A stretch of DNA of 64,000 bases from an uncultured Methylopila sp. (GTDB lineage: Bacteria; Pseudomonadota; Alphaproteobacteria; Rhizobiales; Methylopilaceae): assembly GCA_902168115.1 (NCBI GenBank), contig CABHPB010000141.1:1-64000 (forward strand). The letters run 5' to 3'. Numbering within the stretch: position 1 is the stretch's first letter; the number at the start of each line of letters is the position of its first letter. Shown one piece after another: positions 2,874 through 56,923 of this stretch. A program made the translations under genes and the position numbers. The notes below the pieces were generated by a model. It saw only the letters and a list, made by a program, of their open reading frames with translations, made no database searches and was not told where the DNA came from.

Positions 2874-2976
2874 GCCTCGAAGACGGCTCTCGCGCGCCTC
2901 GGGGGTTTCGCGGATGCGCAAGGGGCGCTAGAGGCAGGCTCTCGCCCGACCTACAGCCGCATTTGGACGCCTTCCG

Positions 2977-6454: not shown

Positions 6455-7663
6455 TCAGGCCGCCTCGCGCCGCCAGAGCGGAAAGGGATCGGGCAGCCGC
6501 CGCAGCGCGGTCCAGTCCACCGCCTCCGCGGTCTCGGGCCCGACCAGCGCCTCCTCCAGCGCCGCGCGCATCGCCTGCTCGTCGAGCCGCACGCCGATAT
6601 AGACGAGCTCCTGTCGCCGGTCGCCCCAACCCTCGACCCAGCGCTCCTGCAGCCAGTCACGCCATTCGGCGTGCTCCGGCCACTGCTCGCGGGGCGTCGA
6701 AGCCCACCAGATCCCCCCGCCCTCGGTCTGGCAGACGGCGCCGGCCAGTGACATCTCCCCCGCCCAGTCCGGCCGGGTGGCGAGCCAGAAGTGGCCCTTG
6801 GCGCGCACGAGCCCCGGCCAGTCGCGCGCGAGAAAGTCCGCGAAGCGCTGCGGATGGAACGGCCGGCGGGCCCGGAACACGAAGCTGGAGACGCCGTATT
6901 CCTCGGTCTCGGGCACATGCTCTGCGAAGCCGAACAGCTCCGTCATCCAGGCGGGCCGGCGACGGGCGGCGTCGAAGTCGAAGCGGCCGGTGTCGAGCAC
7001 CTCGCTCAGGTCCACGCGGCCGAAATCCGCCTCGATCAGCCGGGCCTCGCGATTGAGCGATCGCACCACGGCGCGCACGTCGGAGCGCCTGGCCGCATCG
7101 ACGCTGGAGGCCTTGTTGACGACGAGCACGTCGGCGAACTCGATCTGGTCGGCGAGCAGGTGGACGAGGGTGCGCACGTCCCCCTCCCCCGCGCTCTCGC
7201 CCCGGGCGGCGAGGAAATCGCGACTCGAGAAGTCGCGCAGCAGGCTGGTCGCGTCGACGACCGTCACCATGGCGTCGAGCCTGGCGACGTCCGAGAGCGA
7301 GGCGCCGTCCTCGTCGCGGAAATCGAAGGTCGCGGCGACCGGCAGCGGCTCCGACACGCCCGTCGACTCGATCACCAGGCAGTCGAAGCGCCCGCTCTCG
7401 GCGAGCCGGCGCACCTCGGTCAGCAGGTCGTCCCGCAGCGTGCAGCAGATGCAGCCGTTCGACATCTCGACCAGCGTCTCCTCGGCGCGAAGCACGTCGC
7501 CCGCGCGCACGATGTCGGCGTCGATGTTCACCTCGCTCATGTCGTTGACGATCACCGCGACCCGGCGGCCGTCGCGATTGGCGAGGATATGATTGAGCAT
7601 GGTGGTCTTGCCCGCTCCAAGGAATCCCGACAGCACGGTCACGGGGAGGCGTCGGTCGGTCAT
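6455..7663 (-). CDS. COG0523 / G3E-family GTPase (CobW/YjiA/ZigA-like putative zinc metallochaperone).
   Basis: It has the P-loop [15 protein letters not shown], the metal-binding motif [11 protein letters not shown], and the C-terminal CobW_C-like region. I moved the start to the second ATG at 7663 ([13 protein letters not shown]). The first 13 codons of the track ORF run through an AT-rich promoter-like segment. Confidence 0.85.
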
Positions 7664-7685
7664 GTGCGCATCCTTCAAGTTGGTT

Positions 7686-7697
7686 ATGTTATAACGT
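7686..7697. promoter_or_regulatory. Putative Zur-box-like palindrome ATGTTATAACGT overlapping the promoter of the COG0523 gene.
   Basis: A 10/12 palindrome sits in an unusually AT-rich stretch (ggttatgttataacgttgcatat) 20-35 nt upstream of the start codon. Its core resembles the TGTTATAACA-type Zur boxes that typically control COG0523 genes. Confidence 0.4.
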
Positions 7698-7865
7698 TGC
7701 ATATACAGGCCGTGTTTCGCCGTAAAGGCGGCGCGGCTGGCGTGCGAGCGCGAAAATGGTCGCGCCGGAGCGGCGCGCCTGCTAGAGGCGCGGGCGATCG
7801 GCCGGGAACTTCACCGCCCCGGCCTGCGAAGCCCCGGACTGCAAAAACCCAACTGCGCAAGAGCC

Positions 7866-8960
7866 ATGTCGCGTAAGCCCGCTTTGCCCGACCAGATCGT
7901 CGACCGCCTCGTCGCAGCCGGCTTCGCGCGCGTCGAGCCCGGCGTGCTGCAGCCGGCCGAACCGTTCCTCGACGTCATGGGCGAGGAGCTGCGCCAGCGG
8001 ATCTTCCTCACGACCGACGCCGCCGGCCGGGAGCTCTGCCTGCGCCCGGACTTCACCATCCCGACCGCCCTCGTCCACATGGCGGGCGCGAAGAGCGGCG
8101 CGGCGTCGTCCTACTTCTACGAAGGCCCGGTGTTCCGCCACGGCGCGAACGGCGGAGAGGCGCCTCAGGCGGGCGTCGAGATGTTCGGCCGCGCCGACGC
8201 GACGGCGGCCGAGACGGAGGCGCTCGCCCTTGCGCTCGAAGCCTGCGCCGCGCTCGGCGTCCCCGCCCCGCTGGTCCGGCTCGGCGACCGGGCGATCGTC
8301 GAGGCGGCGGTCGAGGCGCTCGACGCGCCGGCCGCCTTCCGCGGCCGCGTGCGCCGCGCCCTGAAGCGCGGTCGCTCGATCGAAGAGCTCTGCGTCGCAA
8401 GGCCGGGAGAGACCGAGCACGCCGGCCTGTTCGCGGCGCTCGCGTCCGCAGGGCCGGACGCCGGCCGCGCCGTCATCGAGGATCTTCTTTCGCTCGCCGG
8501 GATCGCTGCGGTCGGCGGGCGCACGGCCGGCGAGATCGCCGAGCGCTTCCTCGAGCGGGCGGCGGCGAACTCCGTGACGCTCGCGCCGCAGGCCAAGAAG
8601 ATGCTCGGCTCCCTGCTCGCCGTGGACGACCTCGCGCCCGCAGCGCTCGGCGCCCTGACAACCATCGCGGCTGGCGCCGCCCTCCCCGTCCAGTCCGCGG
8701 TCGCGCGGCTCGGCGAGCGGCTGGAGGCGTTCCGGGCGGCGGGCCTTCCGGTCGAGACGATGCGCTTCTCGGCCCGCTTCGGCCGCGGCCTCGACTATTA
8801 CGACGGCCTCGTCTTCGAGCTTTCGGGCGCGGCCGGCGAACAGCCGCTCGCGGGCGGCGGCCGCTATGACGGGCTGCTGAGCGCGCTCGGCTCTCCGACG
8901 CCGGTCACCGGCGTCGGCTTCGCGCTCTGGCTCGGACGCTTCCCGGAGGCCGGTCGATGA
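7866..8960 (+). CDS. hisZ: ATP phosphoribosyltransferase regulatory subunit (HisS paralog).
   Basis: It has a HisS-like class II core without an anticodon-binding domain. The protein is 364 aa. It overlaps the hisG start by 4 nt. Confidence 0.85.
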   Translation: MSRKPALPDQIVDRLVAAGFARVEPGVLQPAEPFLDVMGEELRQRIFLTTDAAGRELCLRPDFTIPTALVHMAGAKSGAASSYFYEGPVFRHGANGGEAPQAGVEMFGRADATAAETEALALALEACAALGVPAPLVRLGDRAIVEAAVEALDAPAAFRGRVRRALKRGRSIEELCVARPGETEHAGLFAALASAGPDAGRAVIEDLLSLAGIAAVGGRTAGEIAERFLERAAANSVTLAPQAKKMLGSLLAVDDLAPAALGALTTIAAGAALPVQSAVARLGERLEAFRAAGLPVETMRFSARFGRGLDYYDGLVFELSGAAGEQPLAGGGRYDGLLSALGSPTPVTGVGFALWLGRFPEAGR

Positions 8961-9964
8961 GCGGACCCCTCATCCTCGGCGTGCCGTCCAAGGGGCGGCT
9001 GCAGGAGAACGTGCAGGCGTTCTTCGCCCGCGCGGGGCTTGTCTTCACCCGCAGCGGCGGGGCGCGCGAGTATCGCGGCGCGATCGCAGACGTCGCGGAC
9101 GTCGAGATCGCCTATCTCTCCGCCTCCGAGATCGCGGGCCAGCTCGCCAGCGGCGCGATCCACCTCGGCGTCACCGGCGAGGACCTGATCCGCGAGACGA
9201 TCCCCGACGCCGACGCCTCGGTGAAGCTGCTGCAGCCGCTCGGCTTCGGCTACGCCGACGTCGTCGTCGCCGCGCCGAAGTCGTGGATCGACGTGCGCGA
9301 CATGGCCGACCTCGACGACGTCGCCGAGGACATGCGCCGCCGCCACGGCCGGCGCCTCCGCGTCGCGACCAAATACGTGAACCTCACCCGCCGCTTCTTC
9401 GCCGGCGAGCTCGGCCGCGAGGGCCGGCCGGGGGTCGTCGTCACCAACTACCGGATCGTCGAGAGCTCGGGCGCGACCGAGGGCGCGCCGGCCGCAGGCG
9501 CGGCGGATGTGATCGTCGACATAACGACGACCGGCGCGACGCTCGCCGCCAACGCGCTGAAGATCCTCGACGACGGGGTGATGCTGAAGAGCGAGGCCCA
9601 GCTGGTCGCGAGCCTGAAGGCCTCTTGGGGCCCGGCCGCCAAGGCCGCCGGCCGCTCGATCCTGACGCGCATCTCCGCGGAGGTGCGCGCCCGCGCGGTG
9701 CGCGAGGTGCGGGCCGCCTTCGAGGGCCGGGTCGAGCGCCTGATCGTCGACCTCGGCGCCCGCTTCGACGCCCGCGCCCCCTTCGGCGCCCCGGCCGCCG
9801 GCGCGCCGCTGGTCCTGCATGTGCCCAAGCGCGCGGTGTTCCCGCTGGTCGAGGCCCTGTCCGCCGCCGGCGCCGGCACGATCACGGTCGCGACGCTGGA
9901 AGACGTTTTCGAGCCCGAGCCCAAGCTCGTCGCGACCTTTGCGGACGCAGTCGAGGGGCTTTAG
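8957..9964 (+). CDS. hisG: ATP phosphoribosyltransferase.
   Basis: It starts MSGPLILGVPSKGRLQE and contains VTGEDLIRE and TTGATL. The protein is 335 aa with a C-terminal HisG_C-like regulatory extension. The start is coupled to the hisZ stop. Confidence 0.9.
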   Translation: MSGPLILGVPSKGRLQENVQAFFARAGLVFTRSGGAREYRGAIADVADVEIAYLSASEIAGQLASGAIHLGVTGEDLIRETIPDADASVKLLQPLGFGYADVVVAAPKSWIDVRDMADLDDVAEDMRRRHGRRLRVATKYVNLTRRFFAGELGREGRPGVVVTNYRIVESSGATEGAPAAGAADVIVDITTTGATLAANALKILDDGVMLKSEAQLVASLKASWGPAAKAAGRSILTRISAEVRARAVREVRAAFEGRVERLIVDLGARFDARAPFGAPAAGAPLVLHVPKRAVFPLVEALSAAGAGTITVATLEDVFEPEPKLVATFADAVEGL

Positions 9965-18330: not shown

Positions 18331-19335
18331 TCACTCCGCCAGCTGGTAGGTCTCGGCGATCCAGCGGAAGCCGCTCCCGTTTCTCGCGACGAAGCCGAGC
18401 GAGGGGAACGAGGTGTGATAGCCGATGACCGGCAGGCGCTCGGCCGCGGCCATGTCGTAGATCCGCGCCCGCGTCGCCTTTCCCTGATCCTTGTCCATGT
18501 CGAACAGGGCGCTCCATTCCGGATGCGCCAGCGAGGCGACCTCGTGATGCGCGCAGTCGCCCCAGGCGAGCAGCCGCCGCCCGTCGCTCTCGATGTGGAA
18601 GGCCAGATGGCCGGGAGTATGGCCGAAGGCCGCGAGCGCGGTCACGCCCGGCGACGCCTCCTGGCCTGGCTTGAGGAGCGTCGTCCGGTCGGCGAGTGAC
18701 GGGAAGACGCGGGCGAACAGGCGCGCGGATTTCAGCTCGACCGATCCGTCCGCCGCCTTCAGCCGCTCCGGATCGGACCAGAAGGCGTGCTCGACCGCTC
18801 CGATCGCGTAGCGCGCGTTCGGGAAGACCGGCGCGCCGCCCTCCGTGAGACCGCCGATATGGTCGATATGTCCGTGAGTGAGCGCGACGACGTCGATGTC
18901 GCGGGGCTCGTAACCCGCCGCCCGCAGACCCTCGACAAGCCGTCCGCCTGCGGGCCGCGGGATGAACCCGTCCGCGCCGTTGCCGGCGTCGATCAGCGTC
19001 CGGGTCGCGCCGTCGTCGACGACGATCGGGCTGAAGCCCGGCCAGAAGCGCTTCGGCGGCAGGAGGTTGTCCGCCATCAGCCGCTCGACCTCCTCGGCCG
19101 GACGGTCCTCGCCGACGATCGGCCAGGGCCCGTCCACCATCGCGCCGCCGTCGGAGACGATCGTGACCCTCAGCCGTCCGAAGGCGAAGCGGTGAAACGG
19201 AGGCGGCGGCGCCGGCGCAGCCGCCGCTTCCCGCGCCGCGCCGGGCGAGGCTGACGCAACCGACAGAAGCGCGGGCGCCGCGAGCCCCGCAAGAGCCGCG
19301 CGCCGGCTGAGAACCGGTGGATTTTCCGACGCCAT
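18331..19335 (-). CDS. MBL-fold metallo-hydrolase, Tat-secreted.
   Basis: The Tat signal is MASENPPVLSRRAALAGLAAPALL. The HxHxDH motif is ALTHGHIDHIGG. GGGGAGA lies upstream of the ATG at 19335. The rest of the 804-aa track ORF is an upstream antisense extension. Confidence 0.8.
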   Translation of the reverse strand: MASENPPVLSRRAALAGLAAPALLSVASASPGAAREAAAAPAPPPPFHRFAFGRLRVTIVSDGGAMVDGPWPIVGEDRPAEEVERLMADNLLPPKRFWPGFSPIVVDDGATRTLIDAGNGADGFIPRPAGGRLVEGLRAAGYEPRDIDVVALTHGHIDHIGGLTEGGAPVFPNARYAIGAVEHAFWSDPERLKAADGSVELKSARLFARVFPSLADRTTLLKPGQEASPGVTALAAFGHTPGHLAFHIESDGRRLLAWGDCAHHEVASLAHPEWSALFDMDKDQGKATRARIYDMAAAERLPVIGYHTSFPSLGFVARNGSGFRWIAETYQLAE

Positions 19336-19374
19336 CGATATCTTCTCCCCTGCACGAAAGCGGGGAGAGGCTAG

Positions 19375-20163
19375 ATGCCCGGAGCGGCGCAGCGCTTGTA
19401 CGCAGAGGCTGCGGACCTGCGCCCGCTGTGGCGGCTCGACGCCGGCCGGACGCTGTTCGTCGGGCCGCTCGACTACAACGCCCCGCACGAGCATGGCGCG
19501 CCCGTCTTCCTGTCGAGTCTCGGCGCGCCGTTCGGGCTTCGCCTCGACGGCGCCGGCGAGTGGCTGTCCTGCCATGCGGCGATGCTGCCGGCGGGAAAGG
19601 TCCATGAGCTTCAGGTGGGCGGCGAGCCGATCGCGGTGCTCTATGTCGAGCCGACGCTCGCGAGCGCCCACGTCTTCGCGCCGCTCTTCGCCGGCTGCGA
19701 GGAGGTCCGCGGCGCGCTGGTCGGACGCTCGAACGTCGTCTCGCTCATCCGCGCGCTCTACGAGGACCACGCGAGCCTCGGCTGGGCGGACGCGGCCCTC
19801 GACGACTTGCTCGCCTATGGCGGCGCGCGAGCCCGGCGGTCGATCGATCCAAGAATCTTGCGGGTTGCGCGGGCTCTCGCATCCTCGAGCGAACCGGCGG
19901 CGCCGCTCGCCGCCTTCGCGCCGGTCGCGAACCTGTCGGCCTCGCGCCTGCGCCGCCTGTTCGCGGAAGAGATCGGCGCGTCCTTCAGCCGGTACCGCGC
20001 ATGGCTCCGGATGCGCCGCGCGATCGACGCGGTCGTCGCCGGCGCCAATTTCACGGCCGCAGCCCATGACGCCGGCTTCGCCGATCAGGCGCACTTCGCC
20101 CATGACTTCCGAAGGACTTTCGGCGCCCCGGCCTCGCGCAGCCTGACCGGCGTGCGGCGCTGA
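19375..20163 (+). CDS. AraC-family transcriptional regulator.
   Basis: It has a C-terminal double HTH (SASRLRRLFAEEIGASFSRYRAWLRMRRA and FADQAHFAHDFRRTFG). Confidence 0.8.
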   Translation: MPGAAQRLYAEAADLRPLWRLDAGRTLFVGPLDYNAPHEHGAPVFLSSLGAPFGLRLDGAGEWLSCHAAMLPAGKVHELQVGGEPIAVLYVEPTLASAHVFAPLFAGCEEVRGALVGRSNVVSLIRALYEDHASLGWADAALDDLLAYGGARARRSIDPRILRVARALASSSEPAAPLAAFAPVANLSASRLRRLFAEEIGASFSRYRAWLRMRRAIDAVVAGANFTAAAHDAGFADQAHFAHDFRRTFGAPASRSLTGVRR

Positions 20164-20273
20164 AAGCAGGCCCGCCACGCAGGCGGCTTTCAGGCCGACG
20201 CGTGCTCCGTCACGACTTGGGCTCTTGTTGCTGATCGCAAGACGAACGAACACGAGTTCGTGTCCAGCCGCGT

Positions 20274-20291
20274 TTGTCACCCATGCGTCAC
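20274..20291 (+). promoter_or_regulatory. Putative Pho box (PhoB site) upstream of the Na/Pi cotransporter-pstS operon.
   Basis: Two direct repeats TTGTCAC-ccat-GCGTCAC have the 7+4 spacing of the CTGTCAT-N4-CTGTCAT consensus. They lie about 145 nt upstream of the start codon. Confidence 0.4.
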
Positions 20292-20434
20292 GTGCCGGAA
20301 ATAGGCGGTTAACCGTGCAGGCGTGTGGGGGGCGACGCCGGGCCGCCGTGTGGCGGCGCGCGCCGTCCTGTCGCGTCTGTTCGGTCAGCGCGGCGCCCGA
20401 ACGGTTCGGACATCGCCATTCGGAGCGGGGTCCG

Positions 20435-22150
20435 ATGCAACAGGTCGACATCTTCACGCAGATCATCGTGCCGGTGATCGGAGGCTTGGGCATCTTCATG
20501 CTCGGCCTCGAATTCATGTCCAACGGCATCCAGTCGCTGGCGGTGAACAAGATGCGGGCGCTGCTCGCCAAGTTCGCCGGAACGCCCGCCAAGGGCGTCG
20601 TCGCCGGCACCTTCATCACCGGCGTCATCCAATCCTCGACCGCGATGACGGTCATGGTCGTCGGTCTCGTCAACGCCGGCGTCGTCGGCCTTCGCCCCGC
20701 GATCTCGGTGATCATGGGCGCCAACATCGGCACGACGCTCGGCAACGGCCTGATCGCCTTGCCGCTCGGGCCGCTCGGCCTGCTGTTCGCAGGGCTGTTC
20801 GCGCTGCTCTACATCTTCGCCAAGTCCGACCGGGTGAAGAACATCGCACTCGCCTGCATCGGCTTTTCGCTGATCTTCTATGGCCTGAACCTCATGACCG
20901 GCGGCCTGAAGCCGCTGCGCTCCATGCCCGAGATCATGGCCGTGATCTCGTCGCTGAAGGCCGACAGCTACGTCAACCTGCTCTACTGCGTGCTGATCGC
21001 GGCCGGCGTCACCGCCATGATCCACTCGTCCTCGGCGACGATCGGCATCGTGATGGGCCTCGGCGCCGCCGGCATCCTCGACTGGAAGACCGCCGTCGCA
21101 TTCTCGCTCGGCGCCGACCTCGGCACCACGATCACCTCGTGGCTCGCCTCGCTGAACCTGTCGAAGAACGCAAAGCGAGCCGCCTACGCGCACATCTCGT
21201 TCAACATCATCGGCGTGATGGTGACGATACCGCTGTTCTTCGTCTCGATGGACGTTCTGACCTGGGCGATGCAGTGGTTCGGCGGCGATCCGGGCGTGCC
21301 GGTGATCGTGAAGGGCAAGGAGACCTTCCCGCTGGTGCCGGTCGCGATCGGCCTCTACTCGACCTTCTTCAACATCTTCAACGTCATCCTGCTCTACCCC
21401 TTCGTCGGCGTGTTCGAGAGCGTTCTGATGAAGGTCGGCGCCTCCTCGCTGGACGACGTCGAGGATTATTCGGTCCCGAAGCACCTGACCGCCGAGGCCG
21501 CCGCGAAGATCGAGACCGCCGTGCCGAGCGTGCTGCGCGAGAACGAGCGCTATCTCGAGGCCGCAATGAAGTTCCTCGACATCGCGCGCGGCAAGGAGGA
21601 CGCGCCCGAGAAGGTCGAGGAGCACTACGGCCAGATGGACATCCTCAACCGCGAGATCCGGGCCTACACCTCCGGCATGTTCAAGGCCGAGATGCCCTAT
21701 GAGCGCGCCGACCTGGTGGCGAGCCTGATCGAGGAGGAGGATCACACGGCCAGCCTCGGCGAGGCGCTCTACCAGATCGCCCGCCGCGTCGAGCGCCAGC
21801 CGTTCGAGGAGAAAGGCCGCGCGCTGGTCGACGCGATGCTCGACCAGGTCGCCGACGCGCTGCGCGTGGTGGTCGACCCGGCGCAGGCGCGCCGCGAGAA
21901 CCTCTCGGCGGAGGCTGCGCCTCGCGTCGCCGCCCTCGGCGAGCTGCGCGCCGAGGCGCTCAGGCTCAACGGCTCCCTGCCATGGGTCGAGCGCGGCGCG
22001 ATCCTGGCCCTGCTGGGAAGCGCCGAGCGGGCCTACTTCCTGATCGAGCGCATCGACGCCGAGCGCCGCTCGGTCTCCCGCGCCGTCCCGGCCGAGGCGC
22101 AGGCCCCGCGCGAGAGCGGCGGCTTCGGCCTCGCCCCGGTCCCGGCGTGA
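20435..22150 (+). CDS. Na+/phosphate cotransporter family protein (NptA-like with a C-terminal PhoU-like domain).
   Basis: It has the duplicated Na/Pi-cotransporter motifs GANIGTT and GADLGTTIT. The ATG at 20435 follows GGAGCGGGG. The protein is 571 aa. Confidence 0.85.
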   Translation: MQQVDIFTQIIVPVIGGLGIFMLGLEFMSNGIQSLAVNKMRALLAKFAGTPAKGVVAGTFITGVIQSSTAMTVMVVGLVNAGVVGLRPAISVIMGANIGTTLGNGLIALPLGPLGLLFAGLFALLYIFAKSDRVKNIALACIGFSLIFYGLNLMTGGLKPLRSMPEIMAVISSLKADSYVNLLYCVLIAAGVTAMIHSSSATIGIVMGLGAAGILDWKTAVAFSLGADLGTTITSWLASLNLSKNAKRAAYAHISFNIIGVMVTIPLFFVSMDVLTWAMQWFGGDPGVPVIVKGKETFPLVPVAIGLYSTFFNIFNVILLYPFVGVFESVLMKVGASSLDDVEDYSVPKHLTAEAAAKIETAVPSVLRENERYLEAAMKFLDIARGKEDAPEKVEEHYGQMDILNREIRAYTSGMFKAEMPYERADLVASLIEEEDHTASLGEALYQIARRVERQPFEEKGRALVDAMLDQVADALRVVVDPAQARRENLSAEAAPRVAALGELRAEALRLNGSLPWVERGAILALLGSAERAYFLIERIDAERRSVSRAVPAEAQAPRESGGFGLAPVPA

Positions 22151-22172
22151 CGGCGCGAGCGAGGAGAGCGAC

Positions 22173-23282
22173 ATGATCGGCTCCATGCTCGACGGGCGCG
22201 CCGTCAGGGCGGCGCGCATCGCCATCGCGGCTCTCGCCGTGGCGGGCGCGGCGCTCGCGGTCGCGCCCGCCGCCGCCCAGACCGTCTCGGGCTCCGGCTC
22301 CACCTTCGTCCAGCCGCTTCTGAACCGCTGGAACCACGATTTTCTGCGCTCGCAGTGGACGGCGGAATCCCAGCCTTCCGGCGGGCTCGACTACGAGGCC
22401 GTCGGCTCGCAGGCCGGCGTCATGCGCCTCAAGGACCGCGCCGTCGACTTCGGCGCGACCGAAGTCCCCCTGTCGCAGGACGAGCTCAAGCAGTACGGCG
22501 TCGCGCAGTTCCCGGTGGCGATCGGCGGCATCGCAGCAGTCGTTAACCTTCCCGGCGTCCGGCCCGGCGCGCTGAAACTTTCGGGCGAACTCATCGCCGA
22601 CATCTATCTCGGCAAGGTCCGGCGCTGGAGCGACCCGGCGATCAGGGCGGTCAATCCTGACCTCGCGCTGCCCGACGCGGACATCGTCGCGGTCCGCCGC
22701 TCCGACGGGTCGGGCTCGACCTTCGCCTTCACGACCTTCCTGTCGGGCGCCAGCGAAGCCTGGAAGCCGGTGGGCGCGGGCCTCGCCGTCCCCTGGCCGG
22801 CCGGCGTCGCGGCCAAGGGCAATGACGGCGTCGCCGAGACGGTGAGGAAGACCGCCAACGCCATCGGCTATGTCGACCTCGCCACCGCCCGGCGCGCCGG
22901 CCTCGTCGCCGCTTCGCTGAAGAACGCCGCCGGCGCCTTCGTCGCGCCGAGCCCGGAGAGTTTTCAGGCGGCCGCCGAGCGCGCCGACTGGAATGCGGCG
23001 AACGATGCCGGCCTGTCCCTGCTCGACGCACCCGGCGAGGCCGCCTACCCGATCGTGACGACGACCTTCGTCCTCGTCCCGAACGACAGGCCGGCCTCCG
23101 TGCGGACCGCCGCCGCCCTCGACTTCTTCAACTGGGGTTTTGAGCGCGGCGTCGTGCAGGCGGCGAGCCTCGGCTACGTGCCGCTGCCGCCAGCGATGGT
23201 CGCGAAGGTGCGCGAGCACTGGCGCGACACGCTCGGCGCGGCGCCGACGCTGCTGCCGGCGGCGGGTCCCGGCCGGAGCTGA
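22173..23282 (+). CDS. PstS-family periplasmic phosphate-binding protein.
   Basis: It has a signal peptide and the GSGSTF phosphate-binding motifs. AGGAGAG lies upstream of the ATG. It starts 20 nt after the transporter gene ends. Confidence 0.85.
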   Translation: MIGSMLDGRAVRAARIAIAALAVAGAALAVAPAAAQTVSGSGSTFVQPLLNRWNHDFLRSQWTAESQPSGGLDYEAVGSQAGVMRLKDRAVDFGATEVPLSQDELKQYGVAQFPVAIGGIAAVVNLPGVRPGALKLSGELIADIYLGKVRRWSDPAIRAVNPDLALPDADIVAVRRSDGSGSTFAFTTFLSGASEAWKPVGAGLAVPWPAGVAAKGNDGVAETVRKTANAIGYVDLATARRAGLVAASLKNAAGAFVAPSPESFQAAAERADWNAANDAGLSLLDAPGEAAYPIVTTTFVLVPNDRPASVRTAAALDFFNWGFERGVVQAASLGYVPLPPAMVAKVREHWRDTLGAAPTLLPAAGPGRS

Positions 23283-23311
23283 TCCGGCTCGATCGTCCGA
23301 CGTCGAGACAA

Positions 23312-23338
23312 GGCCCCGGACCCGTCCGGGGCCTTTTT
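23312..23338 (+). terminator. Rho-independent terminator after pstS.
   Basis: The stem is ggccccgg-acccgt-ccggggcc, followed by TTTTT. Confidence 0.65.
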
Positions 23339-23450
23339 CGTCGTGCGCCTGCGCCTGACCTGTCGTCCCGACTACGGGTACCTCAATACTGCAACACGAG
23401 TTCTTAAGCCCGCGGTGCGACGATCAGCTGATCAACAACGGGCAGGCGTC

Positions 23451-24497
23451 ATGCCGAAGAGACTCATTTGCGCCTTGCTGGCCGCGCTTTCGGCCGCGGC
23501 GCCGGCTGGGGCGGAAACCCTCAACCTGCTCAACTGGGAAAAGTATGTCGACCAGTCGATCCTCGACGCCTGGACGGCGAAGACCGGGGTCGCGGTGCGG
23601 CAGACCTATTTCGACAGCGGCGACGCGCGCGACGAGATCCTGACCGACCCGCTGAGCAGCGTCGACCTCGTGGTCATCGGCGACAACGGCGCGCGGCTTT
23701 ACGGCCGCCGCGGCGTGCTCGAGACGCTCGACGAGAAGAAAGTCTCGTCTCTGGCCGAGTATCCCGAAGATCTGCGCGGGCGCTGCGGCGGGTACGGCGT
23801 GCCTTATTTCACGGGAACCATGGGCATTCTCTACCGTTCCGACCGGATGAGCGTCGCGCCTACGTCCTGGAACGACCTGATGTCGCCAGCGGACGCCCTG
23901 AAGGGCCACGTCGCGATGTACAACGACCCGACGGAGATGTTCGTCGCCCCGCTGGTCGCGCTCGGCAAGTCGATCAACGCCTCCGACCCCAAGACGCTCA
24001 AGGCCGCGTTCGAGCTGCTGAAGGCGCAGGAGCCGGCGGTCCGGACCTACGACTACATTCTGACCTCGTCGCAGAACCCGACCTATGGCGACGAGATCTA
24101 CATGGCGCTCGGCTACAGCGGCGATCAGTTCGCGCTGAACGACATGCCGAAGTCGAGCGGCGCCTGGAAGTTCGCGTTGCCGCGCGAGGGCTCGCTCTAC
24201 TGGCTCGACTGCATGAGCGTCGTCGCCTCCTCGCCCCAGAAGGCGCTGGCGCTCGACCTCCTGAACCACATCGCCGCCGAGCCGAACGCCCTGATCAACG
24301 CCATGGCCCAGCAGCGCCCGACGCCGAACCTCAAGGCCCTGCCGAAGGTGCCGGAGGACATGCGCAAGAACGAGATGATCTACCCGCCGGCCGACGTGCT
24401 CGCGAAGAGCGAGGCACCGCGCGAGCTCACGCCGGAGGGAATCCAGACCCGAAGGCGGATCATCAGCTCGCTGGTGAACTTCCGTGACGCTCGGTAG
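23451..24497 (+). CDS. PotD/PotF-family periplasmic polyamine-binding protein (NspS-like sensor candidate).
   Basis: It has a signal peptide (MPKRLICALLAALSAAAPAGA) and the spermidine/putrescine-binding fold. Its stop overlaps the downstream GGDEF-EAL gene by 14 nt. Confidence 0.8.
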   Translation: MPKRLICALLAALSAAAPAGAETLNLLNWEKYVDQSILDAWTAKTGVAVRQTYFDSGDARDEILTDPLSSVDLVVIGDNGARLYGRRGVLETLDEKKVSSLAEYPEDLRGRCGGYGVPYFTGTMGILYRSDRMSVAPTSWNDLMSPADALKGHVAMYNDPTEMFVAPLVALGKSINASDPKTLKAAFELLKAQEPAVRTYDYILTSSQNPTYGDEIYMALGYSGDQFALNDMPKSSGAWKFALPREGSLYWLDCMSVVASSPQKALALDLLNHIAAEPNALINAMAQQRPTPNLKALPKVPEDMRKNEMIYPPADVLAKSEAPRELTPEGIQTRRRIISSLVNFRDAR

Positions 24498-26817
24498 ACG
24501 CGCTTTCTTCCTCATCTTCCCGGTGGTCTTCGCCGGCTACGCCATAGCCGCGTGTCTCGTCTACGTTTCGCAGCGCGACAGCCAGCAGCGGCTCGAACAG
24601 GCCCGGCTCAGCCAGCAGCTCGAGCATCTGCGCGTCCTGTTCGAGAGCGACGACGGCGTCGACCGCAGCTTCCTGCACGCGATGACCGGCGGCGGCGCCT
24701 TGCGGAGTTTCCTTCAGGAGACCGACGACGCCTATCGCAGCCACGCGCTCGGCGTGCGCCTGCAGCAGGCGATCGACTCGGTCGCGGGCGACAAGCGCTC
24801 GCTTCTGACCTTCTCGATCATGAACAGCGCGCTCAGCGTCGAGCACTATTTCGAGAACAGCACCGACCCCTTCGCCGAGATCGACCCCGAACAGGTGACG
24901 TTCGCCCGGCGCGTCATGACGGACCGTGGCAAGAGCTCCTGGGCGTTCCTTTCGCCCGAGGGCGGCAGGCCCTGGATCGTCCACGCCGACTTCGTCGATC
25001 CGCTCACCATGAACAGGCCGCTCGCGAGCCGGACCCACGCCGCGGTGCTGCTGATGGCGGCGGTGCGGCCGGAGCGGTTCCTGGCGATGAAGCGGGAGCT
25101 CGAGGCCGAGTACGGAGCGAAGCTCGAGATCGCCGACAAGCGGTTCGCCCCGACCGACGGGCTGTCGGCCTCGACCGAGCTCGCCTCGAGCGCCTTCGCG
25201 CGCATGACGCCCGCCGAAAGCTACTTCGGCGACCGGCTCTGGCCGCTCAAGTTCTGGCTGGCGGTCGGCACGATCGTCGTCAGCCTGCTGTCGATCAGCC
25301 TGCTGATGGCGCTGATCCGGCGCTTCATCACGCGCCCGATCGCGCGGCTCGACCGGCAACTGACCGACGTGCTCGCCGGCGAGCGCGCCTCGATCGCGAT
25401 CGCGGAGGAAGGCGGCGAGATCGGCAGCCTCTCGATCAACATGAAGAACCTGCACGACGACTTCGTGCAGTCGCTGAACGGCATCCAGACCGCGTCCTGG
25501 ACGGACACGCTGACGGGCATCAGCAACCGCGCGCATTTCAACGTTCTGGCCGCCGAAGCGCTGGAGTCCGCGGCCCGGCGCGGCTCGCAGTGCGGCCTGC
25601 TGTTCATCGACGTCGACAACTTCAAGTTCGTCAACGACCGCTTCGGCCACGAGATCGGCGACGGCCTCCTGAGGGAGCTCGCCGGGCGCTTCGCCGAAGT
25701 GGTGACGGACGCGGCCGGCCGCGAGAACGTCGCGCGGACCATCTTCGCGCGGCTTTCGGGCGACGAGTTCGCAGTGCTGGTCGAGAGCGGGGATGCGGCG
25801 GCGACGGCCAAGGAGGTCGCGAGCGAACTGCTCGCCGTCAGCGCCTCAGGCTTCGGCGAGCGCTTCCCGATCGGGGTGAGCATCGGCGTCGCCTCGACGA
25901 CGCAGGAGACCGCCGTCTCGCTCGACGAGCTGCTCGCGGACGCCGACGCTGCGATGTACGAGGCCAAGGCCGCCGGCAAGAACCGCTGGGCCAGCTTCTC
26001 GCGCGAGCTGCTCGAGAAGCGCAGCCGCGAGCGCGCCGTCCGGGACGCCCTGCGCGTCCTCGACCTGGACGAAGAGTTCCGGCTCGTCTTCATGCCGATC
26101 GTGGACGTCGACGGTCGCGTCGTCGCATGCGAGGCGCTGCTGCGCTGGACGTCGCCGACGCTCGGGGACGTCAGGCCGGACGAATTCATCCCCATCGCGG
26201 AGCGCAACGGGCTTTTCGCCGTGATCGACCGGTGGGTGATCGACAGGGCGCTGACGGAGCACGAGCGCCTCGCCGCGCTGTTCGGGGCCGACATCGTCGT
26301 CAGCATCAACGTGTCCTCGGCGGAACTCAGCACCATGTCGCTTCGCGACTATCTGGCGGAGCGCCTGTCGGTCCGCGGCGTCGATCCGGCCCTTGTCGAG
26401 ATCGAACTGACCGAGACCTTCGCCGCCGGCTCCCGCCCGGAGGTTCACCGGAGCGTGCGGGCGCTGCGCGACATCGGCGTCAGGATCGCGATCGACGACT
26501 TCGGCGCCGGCTACACCTCGATCCAGCAGATCACCGAATACTCGGTGGACACGATCAAGCTCGACCGCATCTTCGCCGAGCGTCTCGTCAGCTCCAGCGA
26601 GACGCTGCGCGCCCTGGTCGCGCTCTGCCATGCGCAGGGCATGCGAATCGTCGCCGAGGGCATCGACAGCCCCGAGAAGCAGGCGCTCTTCAGCGAAGTC
26701 GGCTGCGACGGCCTTCAGGGCTTCGGGATCTGCCGGCCGCTCGCGCTCGCGGACCTTGGCGTATGGGCGCTCGCGCGCGTGGTCAGCGCGGCGCGGGAGC
26801 GCAGGCGAGCCGTATGA
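24484..26817 (+). CDS. Membrane-bound GGDEF-EAL protein with a periplasmic sensor domain and HAMP (MbaA-like c-di-GMP phosphodiesterase).
   Basis: It has two TM segments flanking a periplasmic domain of about 230 aa. The GGDEF site is degenerate (RLSGDEFAV). The EAL domain has ACEALLRW plus DDFGAGYTS. The alternative-frame ORF 24552..26840 was rejected. Confidence 0.85.
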   Translation: MTLGRRAFFLIFPVVFAGYAIAACLVYVSQRDSQQRLEQARLSQQLEHLRVLFESDDGVDRSFLHAMTGGGALRSFLQETDDAYRSHALGVRLQQAIDSVAGDKRSLLTFSIMNSALSVEHYFENSTDPFAEIDPEQVTFARRVMTDRGKSSWAFLSPEGGRPWIVHADFVDPLTMNRPLASRTHAAVLLMAAVRPERFLAMKRELEAEYGAKLEIADKRFAPTDGLSASTELASSAFARMTPAESYFGDRLWPLKFWLAVGTIVVSLLSISLLMALIRRFITRPIARLDRQLTDVLAGERASIAIAEEGGEIGSLSINMKNLHDDFVQSLNGIQTASWTDTLTGISNRAHFNVLAAEALESAARRGSQCGLLFIDVDNFKFVNDRFGHEIGDGLLRELAGRFAEVVTDAAGRENVARTIFARLSGDEFAVLVESGDAAATAKEVASELLAVSASGFGERFPIGVSIGVASTTQETAVSLDELLADADAAMYEAKAAGKNRWASFSRELLEKRSRERAVRDALRVLDLDEEFRLVFMPIVDVDGRVVACEALLRWTSPTLGDVRPDEFIPIAERNGLFAVIDRWVIDRALTEHERLAALFGADIVVSINVSSAELSTMSLRDYLAERLSVRGVDPALVEIELTETFAAGSRPEVHRSVRALRDIGVRIAIDDFGAGYTSIQQITEYSVDTIKLDRIFAERLVSSSETLRALVALCHAQGMRIVAEGIDSPEKQALFSEVGCDGLQGFGICRPLALADLGVWALARVVSAARERRRAV

Positions 26818-27049
26818 CGCGGCGGAGAGCGGGCGCGTAGCTACACCCTGAAGCCGGGCCACGCGTTCCGGATCGCGGAACTCCCTGCCCGCTCTAAGAG
26901 TTCCCCACAGGAATCCTGCGCCGGACGCCGCAGCGTCGCGACCTCGTCGCGGACCGGCGGGCCGGGGCTAAAGCTTTTGATTCGTTCGAATTCGTCCCTG
27001 CGCGGCCGAGGGCCGGGACGACGAGGTGCATCCGACGTCGGGGTTGACC

Positions 27050-28318
27050 ATGCGTCATCTCCGCGTCACGCGAATACCGTCCTGCCGCACAATCACGGGT
27101 GCGCACATGATCTACGCGATGGCTCAGGCCGCAGCGCCGGACCGATTCTTCGACGGCTTCGAGGATAGGGGACGGCTGCAGGCGCACGGGCTCTACGACC
27201 GCATCCGGCAGTTTCGATCCGGCGGAGACGCCGATCTCGCCGTCCTCGTGTCCGATCTCCTCGCCCGCGCCGACCGCGCCCTGCAGCGCGGCCCCTACTC
27301 CGTGACGCACAAGACCGCGACGCCGCCGAGCGGCGACAAGCGCGACTACATGCACCTCGCGCCCTATTACTGGCCGAATCCGGACACGCCCGACGGGCTT
27401 CCCTATGTGCGCCGTGACGGCCGCCGCGCGCCGGGCACCATGCTCAACGGAGAGCAGAGCGAGCTCTACGACCGCACGCGCGTGCAGAACCTGTTCGACG
27501 ACAGCTACGTCCTGTGCCTCGCCTGGCGCTTCAAGCCGCGGCCGGCCTATCTCGACCACGCCGCCTCGCTGCTCGAGACGTTCTTCGTCGATCCCGAGAC
27601 GCGGATGCGGCCGCATCTGCGCTACGCCCAGATCCGCCCGGGCCACAACAGGAACATCGGGCCCTGCTCCGGCCTGATCGAGCTCAAGGACTTCTTCTAC
27701 TACCTGGACGCCGTGCGCCTGATGGCTTCCGAAGGCGCGCTGGAGCCTCCGACGCTCGCCGCCTTCAACCACTGGCTCGCCGACTATCTCGACTGGCTGC
27801 TGCGCTCCTCGCAGGGACAGGGGGAAGCGCGGGCGACCAACAATCACGGCGTCTATTATGATCTCCAGGTCGCGGCCATCGCGGCCTTTCTCGGCTGGAC
27901 CGACGTGGTCGAGGACGCGCTGCGGCGCGCGAGGCGGCGGCTGCCGGCGCATTTCGACGCCGACGGCGCGCAGCCGCAGGAGCTCGATCGGGCCGAAACA
28001 GAGCATTACTGCTGCTTCAACCTGCAGGGCTGGATCAACCTCGCGGAGCTTGCCGAGCAGTACGGCGAGGACCTGTGGTCCTACGAGGCGGTCAACGGCG
28101 CGAACCTGAAGACGGCGGCGGTCTGGCTGCTGGACGAGTCGGCCGGGTCGTGGGGACACGCGCAGTCGCAGCCGTTCGAGGCCGAGCGCATCCTGCCGAT
28201 CTGGGCCGCCGCGAGCGAGCGTCTGGATCCGGCCCCGAAACGCCCTGCGAGGCTGCCGCGGCTGTTCCACGCCAAGCCGATGCTGTCGCAGGGCGTGCGC
28301 CCGTTTTGGCAGATCTGA
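27050..28318 (+). CDS. Alginate-lyase-family (polysaccharide-lyase-like) protein with no obvious signal peptide.
   Basis: The protein contains HLAPYYWPNPDTPDGLPYVRRDG and WL..DYLDWLL. Possible starts are 27026 (GTG), 27050 (ATG) and 27107 (ATG), so the start is uncertain. The printed line 27001 also looks offset by one base relative to the track. Confidence 0.6.
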   Translation: MRHLRVTRIPSCRTITGAHMIYAMAQAAAPDRFFDGFEDRGRLQAHGLYDRIRQFRSGGDADLAVLVSDLLARADRALQRGPYSVTHKTATPPSGDKRDYMHLAPYYWPNPDTPDGLPYVRRDGRRAPGTMLNGEQSELYDRTRVQNLFDDSYVLCLAWRFKPRPAYLDHAASLLETFFVDPETRMRPHLRYAQIRPGHNRNIGPCSGLIELKDFFYYLDAVRLMASEGALEPPTLAAFNHWLADYLDWLLRSSQGQGEARATNNHGVYYDLQVAAIAAFLGWTDVVEDALRRARRRLPAHFDADGAQPQELDRAETEHYCCFNLQGWINLAELAEQYGEDLWSYEAVNGANLKTAAVWLLDESAGSWGHAQSQPFEAERILPIWAAASERLDPAPKRPARLPRLFHAKPMLSQGVRPFWQI

Positions 28319-28345
28319 GGATCTGACCAGTTCGACAAAGAAAAA

Positions 28346-28367
28346 GGCCCCGGATTTCGCCGGGGCC
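28346..28367. terminator. Bidirectional rho-independent terminator serving both the alginate-lyase gene and groEL.
   Basis: The stem is ggccccgg-atttcg-ccggggcc. It is flanked by AAAAA on the plus side and TTCTTCATTTT on the minus side. Confidence 0.65.
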
Positions 28368-28394
28368 TTCTTCATTTTCTGGAGCCGGACTTCC

Positions 28395-30110
<1,716 letters not shown>

Positions 30111-34947: not shown

Positions 34948-36771
34948 CTACCCGGCGACCGCCTCGATCCGGCGACCCGGATCGCCGGCGCCGAACTGGA
35001 GCTCCGCGAGCCGCGCATAGAGCCCTCGCCGCGCGACGAGCTCGGTATGCGAGCCCTGCTCGACGATGCGCCCGCCGTCCATGACGAGGATGCGGTCGGC
35101 CGCGAGCACGGTCGCGAGGCGATGCGCGATCACGAGCGTGGTGCGCCCGGCGGCGGTCGCGGCGAGCGCTTCCTGCACCAGCGTCTCGCTCTCGGCGTCG
35201 AGCGCAGAGGTCGCCTCGTCGAGCAGCAGCACCCGCGCGTCCTTCAGCAAAGCGCGGGCGAGCGCGATGCGCTGGCGCTGTCCGCCGGAGAGCGTCACGC
35301 CACGCTCGCCGAGCGGCGTGTCGTAGCCCTGCGGCAGCGCGGCGATGAACCGGTCGGCGCCGGCGAGGCGCGCGGCCGCCTCGACCTCGGAGCGCTCCGC
35401 TTCGGGCAGGCCGAAGGCGATGTTGTCGAACGCGCTCGCCGCGAACAGCACCGGGTCCTGCGGCACGAAGGCGATCCGCGCCCGCACCCCGGCGAGCGAG
35501 GCTTCCCGGAGGTCGACGCCGTCGAGCGTGACGCGCCCGGAGGCCGGGTCATAGAACCGTAAGGCGAGCTGGAACAGCGTGCTCTTGCCGGCCCCGGACG
35601 GCCCGACGATCGCGACCGTCTCGCCGACGGAGGCCTTGAAGCTCAAATCCTCGACCGCCGCCGTCTCGCCGCCCGGATAGGCGAAGCTGACATGCTCGAA
35701 GGCGAGCGCGCCGCGCGAGGGCTCGGGCAGCGGCTTCGGATGGACCGGGCTCGAGACCGCAGGCGGGATCCGCAGCAGTTCGCCGAGCCGCTCCGCCGAG
35801 CCGGCCGCCTGACTGATCTCGCCCCAGACGTTCGACAGCTCGCCGATCGCGGCGGCGGCGAACACGGCGTAGAGCACGAACTGGCCGAGCTGGCCGGCCG
35901 ACATCTGGCCGGCGAGCACGGCGTTCGCGCCGTACCACAGCACGCCGACGACGCTCGCGAAGATGAGGAAGATCGCGACCGCGGTCAGGATCGCGCGGGC
36001 GGTGATGGAGCTTGCGGCCGAACGGTAGGCGCGCTCGACGGCGACGAAGAAGCGGCCGGCGACGACGCCTTCGGCGTTGAACGCCTGGACGGTGCGCATG
36101 GCGCCGATCGCCTCGCCGGCGAGCGCGGAAGCGTCGGCGAGCGTGTCCTGCGCCTGCCGCGAGCGGCGGCGCACCGAGCGCCCGAAGCCCGCGAGCGGCA
36201 GCACGATGACGGGAATCGCGACCAGCACGCAGGCCGAGAGCTTGGGGCTCGTCACGACCATCATCACGGCCGCGCCGAGGAACAGGAACAGGTTGCGCAG
36301 CGCCTGGCTCGCGGTCGCGCCGAAGGCCGACTTGATCTGTGTGGTGTCGGCGGTCAGCCGCGAGACGATCTCGCCGGAGCGCTGGCCGTCGTAGAAGGCC
36401 GGGGTGAGCTCGGTGAGATGGCGGAAGACGGCGTTGCGCAGATCCGCGACCACGCGCTCGCCGAGCGTCGTCACGAACCAGTAGCGGGCGGCGCTGGCGA
36501 AGGCGAGCACGCTCACCACCGCGAGCATCGCCGCGAAATACTGGTTCACCATGCCCGGGTGTTCGGCCGAGAAGCCGAAGTCGATCAGCCGGCGGATCGC
36601 GACCGGAATGGCGAGCGTGGCAGCCGAGGCGACGGCGAGCGCGATCAGCGCGCCGACCACACGGCCCTTGTGCGCCAGCGCGAATGGCCGCAGCGCGGCG
36701 AGCGGCTTCAGCGAGCGCGACGGCGCGGCGTCGTCGCGGCCAGGTTCAGCGGCGCGGCTGCGGCGGGCCAT
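34948..36771 (-). CDS. ABC transporter, fused permease/ATPase (MsbA/ABCB-type exporter).
   Basis: It has a six-TM domain followed by Walker A GPSGAGKST, the signature LSGGQRQR, and Walker B LLLDEATSALD. The protein is 607 aa. Confidence 0.85.
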   Translation of the reverse strand: MARRSRAAEPGRDDAAPSRSLKPLAALRPFALAHKGRVVGALIALAVASAATLAIPVAIRRLIDFGFSAEHPGMVNQYFAAMLAVVSVLAFASAARYWFVTTLGERVVADLRNAVFRHLTELTPAFYDGQRSGEIVSRLTADTTQIKSAFGATASQALRNLFLFLGAAVMMVVTSPKLSACVLVAIPVIVLPLAGFGRSVRRRSRQAQDTLADASALAGEAIGAMRTVQAFNAEGVVAGRFFVAVERAYRSAASSITARAILTAVAIFLIFASVVGVLWYGANAVLAGQMSAGQLGQFVLYAVFAAAAIGELSNVWGEISQAAGSAERLGELLRIPPAVSSPVHPKPLPEPSRGALAFEHVSFAYPGGETAAVEDLSFKASVGETVAIVGPSGAGKSTLFQLALRFYDPASGRVTLDGVDLREASLAGVRARIAFVPQDPVLFAASAFDNIAFGLPEAERSEVEAAARLAGADRFIAALPQGYDTPLGERGVTLSGGQRQRIALARALLKDARVLLLDEATSALDAESETLVQEALAATAAGRTTLVIAHRLATVLAADRILVMDGGRIVEQGSHTELVARRGLYARLAELQFGAGDPGRRIEAVAG

Positions 36772-36977
36772 CGGGAGCCTTGGTCATAACGCTTCCAGAG
36801 AACATGCGCGGGGTTATGCCTTGCGGAGCCTGCAATCTCCACCCCGCCTTTCGCGGCGCATCGGCGCGGCGGTTGTCCGAAGCGTCCGATTGAGCTATAG
36901 GCTCGCGCCTCACGCCATTTTCGCACCTTCGCCGCGCGGGACGCGCCGACGCGACCGAGAAGCTGATAGAGACCGCC

Positions 36978-47941: not shown

Positions 47942-48223
47942 AAACTTACATCCCCGAAACGGCCGGTTCGCCACGACGCTATAAACGTCCGGATTCGGTT
48001 AGGGATCCGTTGAGATCGATCTTTCCGGGGGGTGTTGCAAAGACGTCGCGGTGGCGCGCCGCGGCCGGCGCTTGCCCCGCCGCGGCGGGTTTGGCATCGT
48101 CGCGCCCGCCGCCGCTGAGGGCGGCCTGAAGGCGTTTCCGCACGGCCCCGATGGAGGCCTTGGCGGCTTTCCGCTCCCACACGATCGCGCGGCGGCCGCA
48201 GGCGCCCGCGGAGACGAAAGCCC

Positions 48224-49069: not shown

Positions 49070-49073
49070 CGCG

Positions 49074-52699: not shown

Positions 52700-53158
52700 A
52701 GGTTTCGCTTGCGTGGAGGGGCGAACGCCCTTATCTCCCCGCTTGCCCAATTTCGCGCGTGCCTGTGTCGTGTGTCGGGTTGGCGGGAACTCCCCGCCGG
52801 GCAACCCGATGGCCGGAAATCCCAACCGGCTCTAAGTCGCCTCTCCGGCGGCGGACGCGACGTGAAGCAACGACGTAGAGGGCTTTTTTGGTCTCTGTCG
52901 GCTCTCCAAAGGCCGGCGACACTAAAGAGGCGACTACTTCCTTGCCGGGCGCGTGGCGCGGGTAACTCCCAAACCAAGCGTGGCGACGGTTCCCCAACAA
53001 CGGACATCCGTGTCCGGGGATTGTCGTGACTACGGCGTGATCGAGCGGTTCGGCTTCGCGAGAGGTCGGCCACGGAACGACGCAACTTTCGAACCGCGTG
53101 TCTCCACACCGCGCGGATCGAGGGCGCGCCGATCCACCACGCACATCGTGTTTGGGAC
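52700..53158 (+). ncRNA. Long structured 5' leader of the ornithine decarboxylase gene, a candidate alphaproteobacterial speF-leader RNA motif.
   Basis: This is a 460-nt ORF-free stretch with several local hairpins (for example ggcggg-aactc-cccgcc), directly upstream of odc. Known alphaproteobacterial odc genes carry a conserved leader RNA. I assigned it by context only. Confidence 0.4.
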
Positions 53159-54325: not shown

Positions 54326-54405
54326 GCCCTCAAGGTCCCCCACGGGGGACCGCTCGTCCCACAAAGTGACCCGCAAGGTCGTCTGACCCCCATCAGGAGG
54401 GTTTC

Positions 54406-56820: not shown

Positions 56821-56841
56821 GCAAGGTCCTTTGACGAGGCC

Positions 56842-56867: not shown

Positions 56868-56923
56868 GCGCGCGAGGCGGCGCGGCGGGGCCGAACTTTT
56901 TTCTACACGGATGCGTGACGGAC

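Follow-up and report, generated by a model that had tools for sequence, protein, structure and literature searches.

A probable NspS-MbaA polyamine signalling pair in a Chelatococcus-like lineage of the Rhizobiales

The two-gene locus described here lies at positions 23451 to 26817 of contig CABHPB010000141.1, within the 64,000-nucleotide (nt) stretch of DNA that was analysed as a whole (the window), and its closest described counterparts are the NspS-MbaA systems of Vibrio cholerae and Sinorhizobium meliloti. The V. cholerae system (VC0704-VC0703) is activated by norspermidine and inhibited by spermidine and spermine, ligand effects that are not to be assumed for the window. Mutation of the SGDEF motif of V. 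cholerae MbaA abolishes the polyamine response, an EVL mutant still raises cyclic di-GMP (c-di-GMP) with norspermidine, and the protein was concluded to be bifunctional (Bridges and Bassler, PMC8079147), a view also taken in a later preprint. The S. meliloti genes smc00991-smc00992 were published in 2023 as NspS-MbaA together with nspS mutant phenotypes, including the loss of responses to putrescine and spermine, and the S. meliloti architecture comprises SGDEF, EAL, and HAMP and no I-site (PMC9993111). The survey in that paper covered 16,076 proteobacterial genomes and found nspS-mbaA in 222 of them, with no polyamine or c-di-GMP genes near it in Sinorhizobium or Vibrio (PMC9993111). A gene of the major facilitator superfamily (MFS), fsr (398 amino acids, aa), lies immediately 5' of nspS-mbaA in Sinorhizobium and Ensifer (PMC12095868).

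The pair in the window consists of a gene for a periplasmic binding protein and a gene for a membrane protein with both c-di-GMP domains. Their parts are as follows (TM, transmembrane segment):

23451-24497, + strand: nspS-like gene for a secreted PotD-family solute-binding protein (ATG start, 348 aa)
24484-26817, + strand: mbaA-like gene for an inner-membrane GGDEF-EAL protein (GTG start, 777 aa; Pfam GGDEF and EAL)
24499-24573, + strand: TM1, a hydrophobic segment
24574-25239, + strand: periplasmic sensor domain (residues 31-252), predicted tandem-PDC/dCache-like fold
25240-25332, + strand: TM2, a hydrophobic segment
25333-25488, + strand: HAMP-like helix-loop-helix linker (residues 284-335), from the structure model and conserved residues
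25498-25986, + strand: GGDEF domain (residues 339-501; Pfam E 4e-34)
25756-25770, + strand: SGDEF motif (residues 425-429), from motif position
26044-26739, + strand: EAL domain (residues 521-752; Pfam E 3e-55)
26131-26139, + strand: EAL motif (residues 550-552), from motif position

An earlier note on this DNA, made from the letters alone, had described a PotD-family gene overlapping a membrane SGDEF-EAL gene by 14 nt, and the open reading frames and Pfam matches bear this out (overlap 24484-24497). G+C at third codon positions is 0.88 in nspS and 0.93 in mbaA, as is typical of genuine genes of this roughly 70% G+C window. The GTG start of mbaA is supported because the N-terminus M-T-L-G-R-R is conserved in homologues. 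The identical gene pair is also called on a public ENA metagenome contig, where the binding protein is 100% identical.

Both proteins are homologous to the V. cholerae pair over their full length. The binding protein has 31% identity to NspS over 342 of 348 aa (E 1e-55) and the membrane protein 33% identity to MbaA over 771 of 777 aa, periplasmic part included (E 5e-137), in line with the 32% and 31% published for S. meliloti versus V. cholerae (PMC9993111). Pairs were admitted to the published survey at an identity of at least 30% and a coverage of at least 60%, with the genes on the same strand and overlapping or at most 20 bp apart (PMC9993111); with 31% and 33% identity to V. cholerae and a 14-nt overlap, the window pair falls within this rule. 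An overlap of this kind is counted there as 13 bp and is reported in Pseudomonas, Gluconacetobacter, and some Shinella (PMC9993111). Identities are higher to closer relatives: for the binding protein, 59% to Ensifer NspS and 83% to the Chelatococcus sambhunathii counterpart; for the membrane protein, 49% to its orthologues in S. medicae and Ensifer and 81% to that of C. sambhunathii. The high identities to C. sambhunathii place the window in a Chelatococcus-like member of the Hyphomicrobiales. The full-length homology, the clade split, the pocket residues, and the conservation of the pair all support the NspS-MbaA-type module that the earlier note had proposed. Judged by sequence and by analogy with the characterised systems, the two genes very probably constitute an orthologue of the NspS-MbaA signalling pair, with its full four-step mechanism.

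The pair is conserved as a unit. We scanned one genome per species (GTDB) with a sensor-region query built from a four-sequence alignment, which returned 104 species, and examined the best 80, made up of C. sambhunathii and members of the Rhizobiaceae (Shinella, Ensifer, Sinorhizobium, Pararhizobium, Rhizobium, and Mycoplana). In 79 of these 80 loci, the gene directly 5' of the mbaA-like gene encodes a homologous binding protein, the overlap being 4 nt in 57 and 14 nt in 20. The neighbours differ: the window pair is flanked by a Na/Pi transporter gene and pstS upstream and by alginate lyase and groEL genes downstream, the C. sambhunathii pair by genes for a dienelactone hydrolase and a hypothetical protein upstream and a metallo-beta-lactamase-fold protein and an AraC protein downstream, the Ensifer pair by an MFS gene and purD, and the Vibrio pair by pheA upstream and yjjX, trpR, and slt downstream. 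That the pair is kept while its neighbours differ argues for a functional unit, and the arrangement is not due to chance. Among the species representatives, C. sambhunathii alone ranked with the window pair, which suggests a patchy distribution within Chelatococcus.

In the C. sambhunathii locus (L005), compared with positions 18331-30032 of the window, the pair stands on the other flank of the metallo-beta-lactamase-fold and AraC genes, and no Na/Pi transporter, pstS, or alginate lyase gene adjoins it. The region near groEL is otherwise similar in the two genomes, and within it the two genes have moved together.

The V. cholerae contig that we retrieved (L094) reads bamD-hpf-pheA-nspS-mbaA-yjjX-trpR-slt, and its 791-aa MbaA carries SGDEF at residue 424 and EVL at residue 553, in agreement with the published protein (PMC8079147). 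The numbering of the V. cholerae protein cluster that we retrieved reproduces the published W41 of NspS, and related entries are named "polyamine sensor NspS" and "Norspermidine sensor". The window pair shares with the V. cholerae pair the overlapping two-gene layout, the dCache-like periplasmic domain, and the absence of an adjoining transporter, and the motifs stand at nearly the same positions (SGDEF at 425 versus 424; the catalytic Glu of the EAL-type motif at 550 versus 553). It differs in having EAL where V. cholerae has EVL, an overlap of 14 nt instead of 17, no match to D90 of NspS, and an unrelated neighbourhood. Vibrio matches from a profile search of 1.84 billion representatives also encode an overlapping pair. 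The profile spans 486 positions and includes GGDEF columns, so its 509,629 matches measure GGDEF proteins and not this family, and only matches aligned from position 1 were used.

The S. meliloti system was compared through proxies, S. medicae (L064) and Ensifer (L002), and not through the sequences of S. meliloti 1021 themselves. The retrieved Ensifer locus has the order MFS (398 aa), binding protein, GGDEF/EAL, purD, which is exactly the published fsr-nspS-mbaA context (PMC12095868, PMC9993111). Shared features are the order Hyphomicrobiales/Rhizobiales, an overlapping pair, the succession of TM, periplasmic domain, TM, SGDEF, and EAL, the EAL motif, the absence of an RxxD I-site, and a similar length of MbaA (787-797 aa in S. 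meliloti, 777 aa here). Against these proxies, the binding protein is 51-59% and the membrane protein 49% identical, full length. A homospermidine synthase gene is present in the host here, and homospermidine is present in S. meliloti (PMC12095868). The differences are in host family (Rhizobiaceae versus Chelatococcaceae-like here), overlap (4 nt versus 14 nt), neighbours (fsr and purD versus pstS and alginate lyase), and pocket position 77, which is Asp in S. medicae and Gly here.

The binding protein begins with an N-terminal signal peptide, read directly as residues 1-21 (23451-23513; MPKRLICALLAALSAAAPAGA followed by E), and matches Pfam SBP_bac_8 (E 6e-31). Seven of the eight ligand contacts predicted for norspermidine in V. 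cholerae NspS (W41, D70, D90, F131, Y233, D236, W261, and D263; PMC9993111) are identical here, as W29, D58, F120, Y222, D225, W251, and D253. The PotD residues W34, E171, W255, and D257 are kept as well, the last three as E162, W251, and D253, and mutagenesis of PotD has reportedly marked E171, W255, and D257 as the most important for spermidine binding. The protein thus likely binds a polyamine in an acidic and aromatic pocket of the PotD type.

The binding protein shares with PotD and PotF the fold family SBP_bac_8 and the core pocket residues, and it differs from them in an identity of only ~25%, in scores under the equivalog cut-offs, in belonging to a separate clade, and in having no adjoining permease or ATPase gene. 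PotD and PotF are the nearest solved structures, and the best NCBIfam models for the protein are PotD at 105 bits and PotF at 84 bits, which do not reach the equivalog cut-offs of 582 and 636 bits (NF007048 and NF007962). To place the protein, we built a tree from 14 binding proteins paired with GGDEF/EAL proteins, including V. cholerae NspS, and five transporter proteins, namely Escherichia coli PotD and PotF (potABCD and potFGHI) and three Rhizobiales plasmid homologues, each of which has permease and ATPase genes alongside. Counted as unrooted bipartitions, the split between paired and transporter proteins has 99.6% support (neighbour-joining, 500 bootstraps; 98.4% before V. cholerae NspS was added). 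A phylogeny against transport PotD had been put forward in the earlier note as a test of its reading; the protein groups with the GGDEF/EAL-paired proteins and away from transporter PotD and PotF, and the NspS/MbaA reading is therefore not refuted by this test.

Identity to the transporter proteins is 20-27%, compared with 51-83% within the alphaproteobacterial signalling clade, and a search of 72,556 plasmids gave one Shinella match at 55%, the other records among the matches listed being at 31% or less. Two positions separate the groups in this sample: at V. cholerae position 70 (D58 here) the signalling proteins have Asp and the transporters Glu, and at position 233 (Y222 here) the signalling proteins have Tyr and most of the transporters Trp. 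Gene calling and Pfam scans of the 64-kb window found no polyamine-type ATP-binding cassette (ABC) permease or ATPase gene, as the earlier note had said of the neighbourhood; apart from a fused exporter (34951-36783) and a ModA/ModB-like pair (48119-49784), the window has no ABC genes.

The membrane protein has hydrophobic segments at residues ~6-30 and 252-283 with ~220 periplasmic residues between them, close to the topology published for S. meliloti MbaA (TM at 7-23, periplasm 24-256, TM at 257-277; PMC9993111). The two transmembrane segments, SGDEF, and EAL that the earlier note described all stand; its periplasmic domain of ~230 aa is slightly shorter, and its HAMP domain corresponds in the structure model to a helix-loop-helix only. 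This linker is modelled as a helix to residue 297, a low-confidence loop at 298-311, and a second helix at 312-334; its residues P285, L289, E312, and L316 are conserved family-wide, and one homologue (P0007) has a precomputed HAMP match.

Structure prediction confidently assigns to the sensor domain a dCache-like fold, as in the LuxP-docking domain of LuxQ. In a review, the sensor of V. cholerae MbaA already appears as "not annotated (dCache-like)" (PMC8050422), so this prediction is consistent with the literature and not new. A Pfam search of the isolated periplasmic domain returned no Cache profile. A model of the domain built from alphaproteobacterial sequences finds the Vibrio type (P0191) at E 5e-21 (Z = 1e6), and D-P-F (residues 128-130) is the sole periplasmic signature conserved across the family. 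The resemblance to LuxP-LuxQ, the Vibrio autoinducer-2 sensor, would be one of mechanism: in both, opposing activities would be switched by a binding protein that docks on a tandem-PAS domain. The two systems have no detectable relationship in sequence, the LuxQ output is that of a histidine kinase/phosphatase and not of GGDEF-EAL, and LuxP belongs to the ribose-binding type family, unlike the PotD-type binding protein here. LuxP-LuxQ is thus a mechanistic analogy and not a family assignment.

The cytoplasmic domains keep their defining residues. SGDEF and EAL are present in all 79 alphaproteobacterial MbaA orthologues (79/79). Among 80 alphaproteobacterial members, the GGDEF columns D-x-D, N-D, G-H, and GDEF are fully conserved and the EAL columns E-x-L-x-R, N609, E-x-x-E (E-L-T-E), D-D-F-G, K-x-D, E-G, and Q-G fully or almost fully so, and nearly all of 15 aligned gammaproteobacterial relatives also keep the motif-defining residues. 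Which residue begins the cyclase motif depends on lineage: all 79 alphaproteobacterial proteins have SGDEF, as do the types of V. cholerae and V. olivae, and the other gammaproteobacterial relatives mostly have AGDEF and in a few cases GGDEF (proteins P0162-P0298). An RxxD I-site was not found in the GGDEF domain of the window protein, where RTIF stands upstream of SGDEF.

From the V. cholerae and S. meliloti work, we infer polyamine binding, docking, bifunctionality, and phenotypic output for the window pair as follows. NspS would be exported to the periplasm and bind a polyamine there, without delivering it to an ABC transporter. Depending on the ligand, it would then dock on, or leave, the dCache-like domain of MbaA. 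The signal would pass through TM2 and the HAMP-like linker and would shift the balance of c-di-GMP turnover between synthesis, which depends on SGDEF, and hydrolysis, which depends on EAL. The resulting change in c-di-GMP may alter biofilm, exopolysaccharide, and motility behaviour.

Several points weigh against this reading. The isolated linker does not match the Pfam HAMP profile even at E <= 10. V. cholerae D90 aligns with G77, the nearest Asp being the next residue, D78 (the Asp of this column is missing in most Rhizobiaceae orthologues too), and PotD E36 and Y293 are replaced by K31 and R289. The purified cytoplasmic part of V. cholerae MbaA, as cited in PMC8079147, acted in vitro as a phosphodiesterase only. 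In S. meliloti the phenotypes are complex and vary with the strain, and the published work did not show that NspS binds a ligand directly (PMC9993111). The phylogeny is a neighbour-joining tree of 19 sequences and not a large maximum-likelihood analysis, and the transporter search covered one window, so that a pot transporter could lie elsewhere in the genome.

The alternative that survives best, although we consider it unlikely, keeps the same sensing and makes the membrane protein a phosphodiesterase only, with SGDEF serving as a GTP-binding allosteric or dimerisation module for EAL. It gains from the Ser in place of the first Gly of GGDEF, from the in vitro activity just mentioned, and from a Caulobacter crescentus GGDEF-EAL protein that uses a non-catalytic GGDEF in this way, as cited in PMC8079147. 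Because the purified cytoplasmic part is only a phosphodiesterase in vitro, the bifunctionality of MbaA rests on in vivo genetics. Those genetics nevertheless oppose a phosphodiesterase-only protein, both through the loss of the polyamine response on SGDEF mutation and through the rise in c-di-GMP that norspermidine causes in the EVL mutant, and other SGDEF proteins are active cyclases (PMC8079147, PMC9993111). The invariance of SGDEF in the 79 orthologues and the full conservation of the other cyclase residues also speak for a working cyclase, though a GTP-binding site would keep many of the same residues. Given the invariant SGDEF, the kept catalytic residues, and the V. cholerae genetics, "degenerate GGDEF, acts as phosphodiesterase", the description used in the earlier note, is therefore not the best one and is out of date, MbaA now being considered bifunctional (PMC8079147).

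Less probable again, at about half that weight, is a binding-protein-dependent c-di-GMP sensor whose ligand is not a polyamine but another amine or a cationic metabolite. The alphaproteobacterial members are without ligand-binding measurements (PMC9993111), and the pocket offers some grounds for such a ligand, since G77 replaces a contact Asp and K31 and R289 would add positive charge near a polycation pocket. Seven of the eight NspS contacts and PotD E171, W255, and D257 are retained, however, and the S. meliloti nspS mutants lose their putrescine and spermine responses (PMC9993111), all of which favours a polyamine. An ordinary transport PotD or PotF protein, with its permease and ATPase encoded elsewhere and with the GGDEF-EAL adjacency meaningless, would explain why PotD and PotF are the top matches both by family and by structure and is helped by the inspection of only one window of the genome, but it is very improbable in view of scores far under the equivalog cut-offs, identities of 20-27% to transporters versus 51-83% to GGDEF/EAL-paired proteins, the 99.6% clade split, a pair kept in 79 of 80 loci as the neighbours change, and Rhizobiales transporter homologues that adjoin their own permease and ATPase genes.

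For the NspS-MbaA-type pair, the window also suggests a candidate ligand, through polyamine genes that lie well downstream:

53030-54325, strand not given: odc-like gene, downstream of the pair
54370-54957, strand not given: GNAT gene, downstream of the pair
59626-61119, strand not given: hss, homospermidine synthase (E 6e-233 to PDB 4plp)

These genes are real, but the earlier note overstated their position in calling the pair "next to" them: they lie 26-33 kb away and are unlinked to it, with groESL, cobalamin genes, opgG, and others between. We rejected a link of the pair to odc and hss on the distance and the unrelated genes in between. Most Rhizobiales make homospermidine, and from hss this organism probably makes it too; homospermidine is a candidate ligand because hss is present, which is not evidence of linkage.

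Between odc/GNAT and hss stands a complete operon (55631-59599) for a ribosomally synthesized and post-translationally modified peptide, which we take to be of the bufferin family of metal-binding peptides. Its components, with a divergent extracytoplasmic function (ECF) sigma factor and anti-sigma factor, are:

55631-56287, - strand: NrsF anti-sigma factor, divergent from the operon
56266-56820, - strand: ECF sigma factor, divergent from the operon
57003-57284: DUF2282 precursor
57313-58335: MbnB/DUF692 enzyme
58239-59123: DUF2063 partner
59120-59599: DoxX

Upstream of the pair and at the junction of its two genes, we found the following elements (UTR, untranslated region):

23310-23343, + strand: terminator-like hairpin with a U-run, 3' of pstS, the 5' boundary of the nspS-mbaA unit
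23344-23450, + strand: DNA 5' of the pair, presumably its promoter and 5' UTR (function inferred)
23395-23412, + strand: 18-nt block CACGAGTTCTTAAGCCCG, common to C. sambhunathii upstream DNA
24473-24477, + strand: Shine-Dalgarno-like element GGTGA, 6 nt 5' of the mbaA GTG and within the 3' end of nspS

The hairpin was located by reading and then folding, having been missed by a consensus terminator scan. Its predicted RNA fold has -32.9 kcal/mol and a z-score of -5.0, and none of 200 shuffles was equally stable. The 18-nt block is AT-richer, contains the palindrome CTTAAG, and lies ~40 nt 5' of the nspS start. It is kept with C. sambhunathii although the upstream DNA around it has diverged, is present in one of 79 other loci, and is absent 5' of the Rhizobiaceae nspS genes; the block may serve as a promoter or operator. 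A sigma-70 consensus scan of the pair's upstream region gave no match. The GGTGA element is complementary to the 3' end of 16S rRNA, and its placement inside the 3' end of nspS suggests that translation of nspS and mbaA is coupled.

On the other side of the hairpin, a Na/Pi cotransporter gene (20432-22150) is followed by pstS (22173-23282), which scores above the PstS equivalog cut-off and is an orphan; pstCAB was not found in the window. We rejected a functional link of the pair to pstS and the Na/Pi gene, given the strong terminator between them and the absence of these neighbours in C. sambhunathii, Ensifer, and Vibrio. Horizontal transfer judged by composition was likewise rejected: the G+C of the pair (0.68-0.70) is the same as that of the window and gives no signal.

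Elsewhere in the window, a frame beside opgG (mdoG) at 50213-50773 (- strand) has a first-codon-position G+C of 0.96 and no Pfam match, and is either a gene for a Gly/Ala/Pro-rich protein or not a gene. The histidine genes have an ordinary arrangement, with hisS (2932-4452) and a hisZ-like paralogue (7695-8960) overlapping hisG (8870-9964); hisS and the hisZ-like paralogue are separated by a gene for a cobW-family GTPase (6458-7810, - strand).

The earlier note had implied that the occurrence of this module in the Rhizobiales was novel, which it is not, since S. meliloti NspS-MbaA was published in 2023 (PMC9993111). The system, its presence in the Rhizobiales, and its restricted distribution are all already published; what is new is the host lineage. 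Our literature search found no paper linking Chelatococcus to NspS-MbaA, and the locus adds a Chelatococcus-like lineage (Chelatococcaceae) to hosts that, among Alphaproteobacteria, were earlier mainly Rhizobiaceae. The picture of how NspS-MbaA works is unchanged by the finding. Of use to the field would be the split between signalling and transporter proteins with its diagnostic residues, the invariance of SGDEF in 79 orthologues, and the docking-domain model with its D-P-F signature, and the two genes of the window could be named NspS and MbaA.

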